From: Octopus sinensis
Lineage: Eukaryota
Direction: 5' to 3'
NCBI RefSeq assembly: GCF_006345805.1
Contig: NC_043015.1
Location: 43,896,001-43,960,000 of the forward strand
Length of the DNA: 64,000 bases
In this document: positions 8,905 through 54,499 of the stretch, piece by piece
Numbering within the stretch: the first letter of the stretch is position 1
How the letters are laid out: the number at the start of each line of letters is the position of its first letter
Made by a program: the position numbers and the translations under genes
Notes under the pieces: generated by a model
Told to the model about the DNA's origin: nothing
What the model saw: only the letters and a program-made list of their open reading frames with translations
The model's database searches: none

Positions 8905-11900
8905 ATATCACAATCAAGGAACGGCCATAATAGGCCATTCACCCACTAGAAATAACAGCCAAAAAGCTTCAACCGCAAAATAACATTAATTCCGTAAACC
9001 AGGAGAAAATTAAAAAACATTTACCCTGAAATTCCTTATACGATGCACCGTTTATTCTACTGTTTAATGGTAAACTAACCTGATTAAATTAAATCAAGCC
9101 AATCTACCATAGGCCCTTAGATTCATCAGTAAGGAATAGCCAAATCGAAACAGATATTTTTCACGAGGCATTCTCGTCCATGCCTCGCCAATATCTGGAC
9201 CTAAAATTTTCAAATCGTCGCACTCGCGCCAAATTTATCGGCAGCAAATAATATAAGCCGCCGATTCCATTACGGAACCAACCAGAAAATTCATAATTAA
9301 TCAATATAGACAGGAGGCAAAAAAATTTTGTAGAATTCTTTTGCCCCCAGCGGCCTAGTGGGAAAAAATTAAATAGTCATAAACCATTTTTAAGTTCAAT
9401 ATCACAATCAAGGAACGGCCATAATAGGCCATTCACCACTAGAAATAACAGCCAAAAAGCTTCAACCGCAAAATAACATTATTCCGTAAACCAGAGAGAA
9501 AATTAAAAAACATTTACCCTGAAATTCCTTATACGATGCACCGTTTCTTCTACTGTTTAATGGTAAACTACCTGATAAATTAATCAAGCCAATCTACCAT
9601 AGGCCCTTAGATTCATCAGTAAGGAATAGCCAAATCGGAACAGATATTTTTCACGAGGCATTCTCGTCCATGCCTCGCCAATATCTGACCTAAAATTTTT
9701 TCAATCGTCGCACTCGCGCCAAATTTATCGGCAGCAAATAAATATAAGCCGCCGATTCCATTACGGAACCAACCAGAAAATTCATAATTAATCAATATAG
9801 GGAGGCAAAAAATTTGTTAGAATTCTTTTGCCCCCAGCGGCCTAGTGGGAACAAATTATTAAATAGTCATAAACCATTTTTAAGTTCATATCACAATCAA
9901 GGAACGGCCAAATAGGCCATTCACCCACTAGAAATAACAGCCAAAAAGCTTCAACCGCAAAATAACATTAATTCCGTAAACCAGGAGAAAATTAAAAAAC
10001 ATTTACCCTGAAATTCCTTATACGATGCACCGTTTCTTCTAACTGTTAATGGTAAACTAACCTGATTAAATTAAATCAAGCCAATCTACCATAGGCCTTA
10101 GATTCATCAGTAAGAATAGCCAATCGGAACAGATATTTTTCACGAGGCATTCTCGTCCATGCCTCGCCAATATCTGACCTAAAATTTTCAAATCGTCGCA
10201 CTCGCGCAAAATTTAATTTTCTCCTGGTTTACGGAATTATGTTATTTTGGGTGAAAGCTTTTTGGCTGTTATTTCTAGTGGGTGAAGGGCCTATTATGGC
10301 CGTTCTTGATTGTGATATTGAACTTAAAAATGGTTTTTAGACTATTTAATTTTTTCCCACTAGGCCGCTGGGGGCAAAAGAATTCTACAAAATTTTTTTG
10401 CCTCCCTATATTGATTAATTATGACTTTTCTGGTTGGTTCCGTAATGAATCGGCGGCTTATATTTATTTGCTGCCGATAAATTGGCGCGAGTGCGACGAT
10501 TTGAAAATTTTAGGTCAGATATTGGCGAGGCATGGACGAGAATGCCTCGTGAAAAAAATATCTGTCCGATGGCTATTCCTTACTGATGAATCTAGGGCCT
10601 ATGGTAGATTGGCTTGATTTAATTTAATCAGGTTAGTTTACCATTAAACAGTAGAAGAAACGGTGCATCGTATAAGGAATTTCAGGGTAAATGTTTTTAT
10701 AATTTTCTCCTGGTTTACGAATTAATGTTATTGCGGTTGTTGTTAAGCTTTTTGGCTGTTATTTCTAGTGGGTGAATGGCCTATTATGGCCGTTCCTTGA
10801 TTGTGATATTGAACTTAAAAATGGTTTATGATATTTAATTTTTTCCCACTAGGCCGCTGGGGGCAAAGAACTTCTACAAAAATTTTTTTGCCTCCCTATA
10901 TTGATTAATTAGAATTTTCTGGTTGGTTCGTACTGGAATCGGCGGCTTATATTATTTGGCTGCCGATAAATTTGGGCGGCGAGTGCGACGATTTGAAAAT
11001 TTTAGGTCAGATATTGGCGAGGCATGGACGAGAATGCCTCGTGAAAAATATCTGTTCCGATTTGGCTATTCCTACTGATGAATCTAAGGGCCTATGGTAG
11101 ATTGGCTTGATTTAATTTAATCAGGTTAGTTTACCATTAACAGTAGAAGAAACGGTGCATCGTATAAGGAATTTCAGGGTAAATGTTTTTTAATTTTCTC
11201 CTGGTTACGAATTAATGTTATTTTGCGGTTGAAGCTTTTTGGCTGTTATTTCTAGTGGGTGAATGGCCTATTATGGCCGTTCCTTGATTGTGATATTGAA
11301 CTTAAAAATGGTTTATGACTATTTAATTTTTTTCCACTAGGCCGCGGGGCAAAAGAATTCTACAAAATTTTTTTGCCTCCCTATAATTGATTAATTATGA
11401 ATTTTCTGGTTGGTTCCGTAATGGAATCAGCGGCTTATATTATTTGCTGCCGATAAATTTGGCGCGAGTGCGGGACGATTTGAAAATTTTAGGTCAGATA
11501 TTGGCGAGGCATGGACGAGAATGCCTCGTGAAAAATATCTGTTCCGATTTGGCTATTCCTTACTGATGAATCTAAGGGCCTTGGTAGATTGGCTTGATTT
11601 AATTTAATCAGGTTGTTTTTACCATAAACAGTAGAAGAAACGGTGCATCGTATAAGGAATTTCAGGGTAAATGTTTTTTAATTTTCTCCTGGTTTACGGA
11701 ATTAATGTTATTTTGCGGTGGTTGAAGCTTTTGGCTGTATTTCTAGTGGGTGAATGGCCTATTATGGCCGTTCCTTGATTGTGATATTGAACTTAAAATG
11801 GTTTATGACTATTTAATTTTTTCCCAAGCCGCTGGGGGCAAAAGAATTCTACAAAATTTTTTTGCCTCCCTATATTGATTAATTATGAATTTTCTGGTTG

Positions 11901-13837
11901 GTTCCGTAATGAATCGGCGGCTTATATTTATTTGCTGCCGATAAATTTGGCGCGAGTGCGACGATTTGAAAATTTTAGGTCAGATATTGGCGAGGCATGG
12001 ACGAGAATGCCTCGTGAAAAATATCTGTTCCGATTGGCTATTCCTTACTGATGAATCTAGGGCCTATGGTAGATTGGCTTGATTTATTTTAATCAGGTTA
12101 GTTTACCATTAAACAGTAGAAGACCGGGCATCGTATAAGGAATTTCAGGGTAAATGTTTTTTCATTTTCTCCTGGTTTACGGAATTAATGTTATTTTGCG
12201 GTTGAAGCTTTTGGCTGTTATTTCTAGTGGGTGAATGGCCTATTATGGCCGTTCCTTGATTGTGATATTGAACTTAAAAATGGTTTATGACTATTTATTT
12301 TTTCCCACTAGGGCCGAGGGGGCAAAAGAATTCTACAAAATTTTTTTGCCTCCCTATATTGATTAATTATGAATTTTCTGGTTGGTTCCGTAATGGAATC
12401 GGCGGCTTATATTTATTTGCTGCCGATAAATTTGGCGCGAGTGCGACGATTTGAAAATTTTAGGTCAGATATTGGCGAGGCATGGACGAGAATGCCTCGT
12501 GAAAAATATCTGTTCCGATTTGGCTATTCCTTACTGATGAATCTAAGGGCCTATGGTAGATTGGCTTGATTTTAATTAATCAGGTTAGTTTACCATTAAA
12601 CAGTAGAAGAAGAAACGGTGCATCGTATAAGGAATTTCAGGGTAAATGTTTTTTAATTTTCTCTCATGGTTTACGGATTAAGTGTTATTTTTGCGGTTGA
12701 AGTTTGCTTTGGCTGTTATTTCTAGTGGGTGAATGGCCTATTATGGCCGTTCCTGATTGTGTGATATTGAACTTAAAATGGTTTATGACTATTTAATTTT
12801 TTCCCACTAGGCCGCTGGGGGCAAAAGAATTCTACAAAATTTTGTTTGCCTCCCTATATTGATTAATTATGAATTTTCTGGTTGGTTCCGTAATGGATCG
12901 GCGGCTTATATTTTGCTGCCGATAAATTTGGCGCGAGTGCGACGATTTGAAAATTTTAGGTCAGATATTGGCGAGGCATGGACGAGAATGCCTCGTGAAA
13001 AATATCTGTTCCGATTTGGCTATTCCTTACTGATGAATCTAAGGGCCTATGGGAGATTGGCTTGATTTAATTTAATCAGGTTAGTTTACCATTAAACAGT
13101 AGAAGAACGGTGCATCGTATAAGGAATTTCAGGGTAAATGTTTTTTAATTTTCTCCTGGTTACGGATTAATGTTATTTTGCGGTTGAAGCTTTTTGGCTG
13201 TTATTTCTAGTGGGTGAATGCCTATTATGGCCGTTCCTTGATTGTGATATTGAACTTAAAAATGGTTTATTTATGACTATTTTTTTTCCCACTAGGCCGC
13301 TGGGGGCAAAGACTTCTACAAAATTTTTTTGCCTCCCTATATTGATTAATTGAATTTTCTGGTTGGTTCCGTAATGGAATCGGCGGCTTATATTTATTTG
13401 CTGCCGAATAAATTTGGCGCGAGTGCGACGATTTGAAAATTTTAGGTCAGATATTGGCGAGGCATGGACGAGAATGCCTCGTGAAAAATATCTGTTCCGA
13501 TTTGGCTATTCCTACTGATGAATCTAAGGGCCTATGGTTTAGATGCTTGATTTAATTTAATCAGTTAGTTTTACCATTAAACAGTAGAAGAACGGTGCAT
13601 CGTATAAGGAATTTCAGGGTAAATGTTTTTTATTTTCTCCTGGTTTACGGAATTAATGTTATTTTGCGGTTGAAGGCTTTTTGGCTGTTATTTCTAGTGG
13701 GTGAATGGCCTATTATGGCCGTTCCTTGATTGTGATATTGAACCTTAAAAATGGTTTATGACTATTAATTTTCCCACTAGGCCGCTGGGGGCAAAAGAAT
13801 TCTACAAAATTTTTTTGCCTCCCTATATTGATTTAAT
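8905..13837. mobile_element. Retrozyme-like tandem array 1: ~10 copies of a ~490-bp hammerhead-containing unit with an internal inversion
   Basis: ATCACAATCAAGG recurs at 8907, 9401 and 9890. Orientation flips at ~10213 (~2.7 copies left, ~7.4 right). One hammerhead motif per unit; (TA)n on both sides. The repeat is certain; the retrozyme call is inference. Confidence 0.85.
10575..10680 (+). ncRNA. Type I hammerhead ribozyme motif (representative of array 1)
   Basis: ATTCCTTA-CTGATGA-ATCTA..TAGAA-GAA-ACG GTGCAT CGT-A^TAAGGAAT. Other + cores at ~11075, 11563, 12048 (damaged), 12534, 13030 and 13515. Minus-strand copies at ~9031-9137, ~9523-9627 and ~10013-10117. Confidence 0.85.
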
Positions 13838-13902
13838 ATATACATATATATACATTGTACAATAATGTGTATGTATATGTAATAATATATCTATATATAT
13901 TA

Positions 13903-54262: not shown

Positions 54263-54499
54263 TGTGTGTGTGTGTGTTGCTGTATGACCGCAGCTCTTGA
54301 GCTGAAACTAATTAAAGAGTTATCTCTATATATGTATATACTACATAGGTAAACGTTTTTATTTTTCAATCTCTTTCGGAATTACAACAATTGGTGACTT
54401 AGAGTTTTTAACTGCTCTTTCTAGCGAGTTAGATATCCTATTCTTCGGGTATCTCTTTTATGTTATATATTTACATGCATAAATGCATACATATATAAT

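Follow-up and report, generated by a model that had tools for sequence, protein, structure and literature searches.

How can tandem units, each carrying a hammerhead ribozyme, come to lie in a genome as two opposed arms with fixed ends? The question is raised by positions 8905 to 13837 of a 64,000-nt stretch of the Octopus sinensis genome (contig NC_043015.1; hereafter, the window), where a unit of 491 nt is repeated. The original prediction had described this locus as a satellite, a single tandem array of hammerhead ribozymes and a candidate retrozyme. Our results suggested another architecture, typically two head-to-head arms whose outer ends are fixed. The explanation that we favour, with moderate confidence, is a non-autonomous hammerhead-bearing retroelement, that is, a retrozyme without long terminal repeats (non-LTR retrozyme), mobilised in trans by an endonuclease-containing (EN+) Penelope-like element (PLE), probably of the Neptune type. 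That the element is a retrozyme is very likely, and its insertion by PLE double priming is likely; a circular step in the cycle has somewhat better than an even chance.

Each unit carries a type I hammerhead ribozyme

As originally predicted, there is one hammerhead per unit of about 490 nt, and all its named parts were found: an 8-bp stem I, CUGAUGA, stem II, GAAA, a short, self-complementary (near-palindromic) stem III and the GUA triplet, whose predicted cut after position 10672 had also been placed correctly. With its conserved core, three helices and open stem I, the motif is a type I hammerhead. The unit has a GC content of about 37%, and its longest ATG frame (66 aa) was rejected as a candidate remnant of an open reading frame (ORF), since it has no meaningful match to PLE proteins and is broken in subfamily C. 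The monomer had been thought unusually large; it lies above the 300 bp or so typical of metazoan retrozymes (PMC7229834), but it is unremarkable among the reported consensus lengths of 51 to 972 bp (bioRxiv 10.64898/2026.07.22.740005).

In the window array, which belongs to subfamily A, CUGAUGA is kept in 10/10 units, the full stem I in 7/10 and GAAAC in 6/10. These defects look like long-read errors, because the array has 36 singleton substitutions, compared to 0–15 at 20 other subfamily A loci. Its stem II encloses about 70 nt, including a 19-bp hairpin, and stem II measures 50–75 nt across the hammerheads of the family. The first pair of stem II is an A-A or A-C mismatch in subfamily A (A-A in the window array).

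The hammerhead is real. In an alignment of 16 hammerheads of subfamilies A, B, C, E and G, both partners vary in 13 of the 17 pairs, and 93% of the cells pair, compared to 35–46% in controls with slid partners; note that the 16 rows are related, so shuffle counts are not probabilities. The subfamilies in which covariation has retained the ribozyme are only about 70% alike. The check proposed with the original prediction, Infernal against the Rfam hammerhead models, was negative: nothing matched at the gathering threshold in the whole window, and no hammerhead family appeared at E ≤ 10 in 10400–11800, probably due to the long stem II.

Stem III is predicted to be weak as a hairpin alone and to form, with a second copy, a 12-bp duplex of −17 to −21 kcal/mol. 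Such a dimer arrangement has been described for metazoan and PLE hammerheads (PMC4209133). In predicted folds of whole monomers, subfamily B forms stems II and III, and A and C lack stem III; the A monomer is predicted to misfold, with a stem III pairing probability of about 0.02.

Two haplotypes of subfamily A differ in the ribozyme itself. In one (L037, L039 and L040) the cleavage triplet reads GUC instead of GUA in all units, and in the other (L035, L044, L045 and L048) the first stem II position is altered.

Insertions have two arms with different outer ends

Our first sample comprised the 20 best-matching A loci, the 20 best-matching B loci and the two loci of the window, 42 in all, and is biased to long young arrays. 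Head-to-head arms were present in 40/42 loci. In 37 of the 41 loci seen whole, one arm ends 119–134 nt past the cut (site 1) and the other 231–241 nt past it (site 2); no locus had two outer ends of one kind. This count stood at 35 before L054 and L062, whose second arm is shorter than 20 nt, were added by eye. The 35 also exclude two loci where one end is non-standard (L031 and L065), two with just one arm (L045 and L063), L061, whose far end lies beyond the retrieved stretch, and the C and D elements inside L056.

The rule was reproduced in 20 additional B loci, chosen by their order in the list: 15 had an opposite arm, all 13 visible far ends lay at site 2, four loci were single-armed and one extended past the retrieved stretch. 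Exact junction patterns of an end with (TA)n gave 439 (A and C type) plus 147 (mainly B) matches for site 1 and 580 for site 2; these counts are lower bounds, and put the two-arm insertions at about 580 or more. On contigs C1 and C2 (201 listed ends), 33 of the 34 outward-facing pairs within 12 kb combined site 1 with site 2. The insertions found there have a median span of 679 bp, 11/33 being shorter than one unit, and the longest reaches 6.5 kb. Copies of subfamily E, which is older, mostly measure about one unit. A satellite would form long clustered arrays without defined ends, and what we found instead are hundreds of dispersed, short insertions with fixed ends; likewise, the supposed single array of the window resolves into two arms on opposite strands (Table 1).

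One could suspect assembly or fold-back read artefacts behind the inverted arms, since the assembly has many homopolymer indels. We find this hardly credible: the flanks differ, the outer ends differ by rule, the junctions are mostly asymmetric, the haplotypes are locus-specific, and the independent run X17 contains unit-(TA)n junctions at site 1 (25 contigs). A simple fold-back origin is also excluded, since either arm can be the longer one (15 versus 20 loci).

The insertions lie in (TA)n, which was present on both flanks in 32/34 loci. Candidate target-site duplications of 13–15 bp, longer than 4 bp as in non-LTR retrozymes, were seen at 6/34 loci, the remainder being unreadable inside (TA)n. 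The outer ends fall on AT or TA dinucleotides and site 1 shifts by subfamily (134 in A, 131 in B), a shift that suggests short pairing of the primer with the target. A terminal domain, formed by a long-range stem around site 1 and an inner hairpin, is kept down to barely alignable relatives, with a double change in 12/22 predicted pairs. It may be the binding and start signal for the reverse transcriptase (RT).

Such an architecture is frequent in the genome. Several further small elements are flanked by (TA)n (L104:8286-9400, L107:6764-7880, L119:725-1162 and 7414-8127, with more members of the group at L035:1941-2300 and L056:2320-2635); they are mostly two-armed, some have hammerheads and most have the terminal domain. 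L173 holds a four-part insertion, in which another inverted pair, beginning at unit position 353, is nested between the outer arms. The inner end of the single-arm C insertion at L154:2790-2810 leads into a few repeats resembling telomeric ones, which would fit healing by telomerase.

Both arms of an insertion share one template

Within a locus, variants are all-or-none (57 fixed, 19 intermediate and 224 single). The haplotypes of the two arms agree in 19/19 A loci and 15/15 B loci, where permutation gave means of 4.6 and 1.8, and they agree in the replication loci with several units (L164, L177 and L180); in the replication, L161 departed from this at one site, and single-copy arms were noisy. 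The haplotype is distinct at 8/21 A loci and 13/21 B loci, with up to 9–10 fixed changes. This is evidence that both arms of an insertion come from one template. Moreover, the 13.5 units of L039 carry not a single singleton substitution, and therefore arrays were probably born long. Since a purely linear cycle can neither fix a new mutation in 13 units nor lengthen an arm, we infer that a monomer-to-multimer step must recur.

Small two-arm insertions could instead have grown and been homogenised later, in DNA, by slippage, unequal exchange or conversion; growth at the DNA level has been proposed for retrozyme arrays (bioRxiv 10.64898/2026.07.22.740005). The often short insertions of the unbiased C1–C2 set are compatible with this, as are the duplication of some whole elements (L065) and a block at L067, where two variants are restricted to the last two units of one arm. 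Such growth is nevertheless improbable as the general explanation: very young arrays such as L039 are already long, the intermediate variants are few and, L067 excepted, mostly scattered or in non-adjacent units, old E copies stay at about one unit, and long arms still end at the cut.

Inner arm ends of subfamily B pile up at the predicted cut

In the first sample, 13/32 inner ends of subfamily B fell within −7 to +30 of the cut (2.4 expected; 0/2000 scan simulations). This interval was picked after seeing that sample; the prediction was then fixed, and in the replication 12/34 inner ends of B loci fell inside it (p 4e-6 under a uniform null; 4e-4 at 12%). Both arms end at the same cut at L161, L171, L176 and in the B insertion of the window, and both outer arms of L173 end at position 1, exactly at the cut. 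The pile-up would be an indirect footprint of cleavage in vivo. About half of the B arms longer than two units (13/26) stop at the cut; therefore, many templates would have been multimeric linear RNAs whose 5' end lay at a cut, or else circles that caused a stall, or reopened, at the junction.

Stops of this kind also agree with PLE double priming that involves no circle, in which the telomerase-related RT re-uses one linear RNA, transferring strands repeatedly at its terminal redundancy, or jumps the nick of a cut monomer, and the hammerhead only sets the 5' end. Uniform arrays would then follow from the re-use of one molecule, and hammerhead-poor non-autonomous elements of Chlamys are reported to insert as head-to-tail multicopies as well (PMC8557442). 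We consider this cycle possible, though unlikely. End-to-end template jumps usually leave additions or deletions, as seen in work on R2 and L1, whereas the cut sites of B are read through cleanly: 146/169 junction segments are exact, the remainder are scattered, and no clustered scars were seen among the 169. Moreover, the ribozyme has been kept by covariation across the diverged subfamilies.

A single step would account both for long uniform arms and for stops at the cut if circles were replicated from RNA to RNA by a host polymerase, in the manner of viroids, and uniform, partly cut multimers served as the templates of insertion. RNA-to-RNA copying has been reported for a plant retrozyme (PMC9695139), the many haplotypes are consistent with it, and circular monomers fold strongly compared to shuffles (z −8.0 and −7.0). 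However, the reverse complements fold nearly as strongly (z −7.2 and −4.5), so the fold is silent on polarity; no antisense ribozyme was noticed; and young uniform arrays, transcribed in the ordinary way, yield an identical pattern. An animal viroid-like replicon with a genomic reservoir, a 491-nt circle copied from RNA to RNA in the germ line, is a long shot. Were it true, its uniform multimers, cut by their own hammerheads, would be fixed in the genome by a PLE dimer, for which two fixed positions on a single RNA would serve to prime the two strands of the target.

Penelope-like elements in the genome

We searched for PLEs with a GIY-YIG profile, scoring 150 of 5029 candidates, and with a protein search, and compared 50 GIY-YIG loci with the unit. 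The genome contains many elements with RT and GIY-YIG and a CxxxxCxxC zinc-finger-like linker, a feature given for Neptune and Nematis (PMC8557442); note that our label Neptune-type rests on this motif, without a tree. The searches yielded Neptune-type families and one other PLE type. Two Neptune-type families retain open frames of 775–781 aa and end at (TA)n, and autonomous EN+ PLEs with open ORFs are thus present. The named best matches of a PLE protein encoded in this genome are mostly molluscan. One Neptune-type copy, L113, has two head-to-head arms that end about 100 and 135 nt past its own hammerhead-like motif, and thus follows the two-site rule of the retrozyme, in a single case. In the commonest family, Neptune-1, there are two end sites 40 nt apart, and a pattern joining site 2 of the retrozyme to the Neptune-1 tail had 0 matches.

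Several side observations concern these elements. At L109:8420-9130 a diverged two-arm relative adjoins the 5' end of a full Neptune-1 unit, without (TA)n between them; this is possibly a template switch that points to the partner, and the pattern of such a junction for the young subfamilies had 0 matches. Canonical EN+ PLEs are described with one ORF. Neptune-1 has an upstream frame of 470–479 aa that overlaps the RT-endonuclease frame (L103:1174-2610 with 2532-4874; L109; L118) and has no significant Pfam match; the L104 family may also have such an upstream frame. Hammerhead-like motifs with a U3-A8 core variant were noted by eye near the ends of two Neptune-type families (L103:5860-5900 and L113:7350-7404). 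Finally, positions 3.7–5.4 Mb of contig C18 hold many near-identical subfamily E insertions, at least some of them adjoining a Neptune-1 end, which suggests a cluster of segmental duplications.

A proposed cycle and the points against it

In the PLE-mobilised retrozyme that we propose, arrays would be transcribed as multimers, and some of the units would be cut by their hammerheads, which probably act as dimers held together by the self-complementary stem III, cleavage having left its apparent footprint in B. Some monomers would circularise, and copying of the circle would regenerate a uniform multimer, a step that we infer because variants are all-or-none. Both circles and linear multimers that are partly cut would probably serve as templates. 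A PLE protein would then nick both strands of the (TA)n target about 14 bp apart, and a single template would be reverse transcribed from two starts, one strand priming at site 1 and the other at site 2. Each complementary DNA (cDNA) would span zero to 13 units and stop at the cut 5' end, at a hairpin or at random. Joining of the cDNA ends by microhomology would give the product that is observed, head-to-head arms with a tail of about 103 nt on one of them.

Pieces of the family are present as contigs in three runs guessed as RNA and in one unlabelled run, which is neutral on transcription. Between window 11665-12640 and the runs guessed as RNA, A>G exceed T>C differences (9:4 in X1, 13:3 in X5 and 11:5 in X13); the excess is seen neither in run X17 (3:3) nor between subfamilies (6:7 and 6:4). 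It could reflect adenosine-to-inosine editing or other subfamilies.

Several results weigh against the proposed cycle. Subfamily A shows no pile-up at the cut (4/38 inner ends, p 0.32; Fisher p 0.005 compared to B), and its inner ends cluster instead at 203–237, the base of the hairpin before site 2 (10/38; 54/2000 simulations). Subfamily C, predicted to stop at the cut, failed to do so (1/15 ends). The subfamily pattern does match the predicted folding, in which only B forms stem III, but this match was made after the fact. A scar-free closed circle does not explain the long B arms that stop at the cut, and the L067 block does not fit. Arm lengths are negatively correlated (rho −0.36), where two enzymes in step would give a positive correlation; together with the stops at the cut, this leaves the idea of two enzymes in step on one closed circle unsupported. 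No autonomous PLE similar to the unit or to the terminal domain was found by blastn, nhmmer or a covariance model among the 50 GIY-YIG loci compared, which come from 150 scored of 5029 candidates, and the Neptune-1 copies examined have no inverted second arm. In addition, insertion by the PAc protein in vitro did not need cleavage (PMC11167929), and the multicopy Chlamys insertions mentioned above come from hammerhead-poor elements.

The insertions of the window

The window contains two insertions (Table 1). The second, of subfamily B, is 89% identical to subfamily A and is built like the first. Degenerate fragments of the same superfamily lie at 54400-54481 (E 7.5e-6) and 29920-30001 (E 0.018), and a decayed reverse-transcriptase fragment, LINE-type by eye, occupies 46567-47150 on the minus strand.

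Table 1. Features of the two insertions, in window coordinates; cuts are predicted.
Feature	Position	Strand	Remarks
First insertion, left arm, subfamily A, 2.67 units	8905..10215	-	outer (RNA 3') end at unit position 134 (site 1), inner end at 294
Predicted cuts, left arm	10021, 9532, 9039	-	
First insertion, right arm, subfamily A, 7.4 units	10212..13833 (to about 13837)	+	inner end at unit position 25, outer end at about 231-237 (site 2)
Predicted cuts, right arm	after 10672, 11164, 11652, 12135, 12627, 13119, 13604	+	
Head-to-head junction	10212..10215	.	4-nt overlap (microhomology)
Type I hammerhead, one example	10575..10680	+	8-bp stem I, core, stem II of about 70 nt with long hairpin, predicted cut after 10672
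Conserved terminal domain of last unit	13694..13823	+	long-range stem 13694-13780 around site 1; hairpin 13787-13823 just before site 2; candidate RT binding and start signal
14-bp target-site-duplication candidate, left copy	8895..8908	.	inside (TA)n; overlaps element end by 4 nt
14-bp target-site-duplication candidate, right copy	13836..13849	.	
Second insertion, left arm, subfamily B, 2.2 units	48679..49768	-	outer end at site 1, inner end 18 nt past cut
Second insertion, right arm, subfamily B, 2.5 units	49766..50995	+	inner end 7 nt past cut, outer end at site 2

Comparison with known systems

The class of the element, the non-LTR retrozymes, is already known. As occurs with those of metazoans (PMC7229834; bioRxiv 10.64898/2026.07.22.740005), the tandem units are non-coding and low in GC, each carries one type I hammerhead, the duplications exceed 4 bp and PLEs co-occur. 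Every feature that can be tested in DNA thus agrees with the retrozyme originally proposed; what that proposal missed are the two-arm, fixed-end architecture and the link to PLEs. In contrast to the published retrozymes, the octopus insertions are dispersed and two-armed, with fixed ends (the word 'inverted' does not occur in the main text of PMC7229834), and their hammerheads have the long stem II. Expression and cleavage have been shown for metazoan retrozymes, whereas the octopus family is known from genomic DNA. Tandem cDNA made by a PLE on a circular template has been proposed for non-LTR retrozymes (PMC7229834; PMC7761336). Another report argues for an ancestry in the pseudo-long terminal repeats (pLTRs) of PLEs, puts the arrays down to local amplification and finds 1/9 dimers cleaved (bioRxiv 10.64898/2026.07.22.740005), and opposite-strand hammerhead pairs have been noted in Schistosoma (PMC4209133).

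The EN+ PLEs Neptune and Poseidon (PMC3846280; PMC8557442; PMC11167929) share with the octopus element the head-to-head inverted ends, two internal start sites, AT-rich or microsatellite targets and a hammerhead upstream of the start sites; inverted pLTRs of which one arm carries a tail have been described in PLEs (PMC3846280). In vitro, a PLE protein in purified form cuts AT-rich DNA on both strands, extends them and initiates at two internal sites, by which the tail is defined; that assay reports no reads ending at the cut (PMC11167929). The octopus element differs in having no ORF, up to 13 units per arm and a tail of about 103 nt instead of 30–40 nt, and no homologous autonomous pLTR was found for its unit among the 50 GIY-YIG loci. 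The position of its start sites varies with AT microhomology to the target, whereas PAc initiated in vitro in the absence of homology. The Chlamys non-autonomous elements, such as MRC1 (PMC8557442), are likewise PLE derivatives that insert as head-to-tail multicopies; unlike the octopus element, they come from green algae, mostly lack hammerheads and resemble their autonomous partners at the 3' end.

As the original prediction had supposed, no description of the family was found in the literature searched, nor of two-armed retrozyme insertions; supplementary consensus libraries and family tables, which lay outside the search, could contain the family. The long stem II, the rule of one site per arm, the shared arm haplotypes and the stops at the cut were not found there either. 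The sources cited leave open how PLEs make tandem and inverted insertions, what the hammerhead does in vivo and which enzyme moves animal retrozymes. On these questions the octopus insertions act as natural reaction products, with one site per arm, a shared template, a cut footprint in B and a covarying domain at the start sites.

Finally, the insertions resemble LINE-1 twin priming, in which a single RNA is primed by two strands of the target and microhomology joins the resulting cDNAs. In LINE-1, the second priming is internal, variable and occasional, whereas in the octopus insertions it occurs at a fixed site and is the rule.

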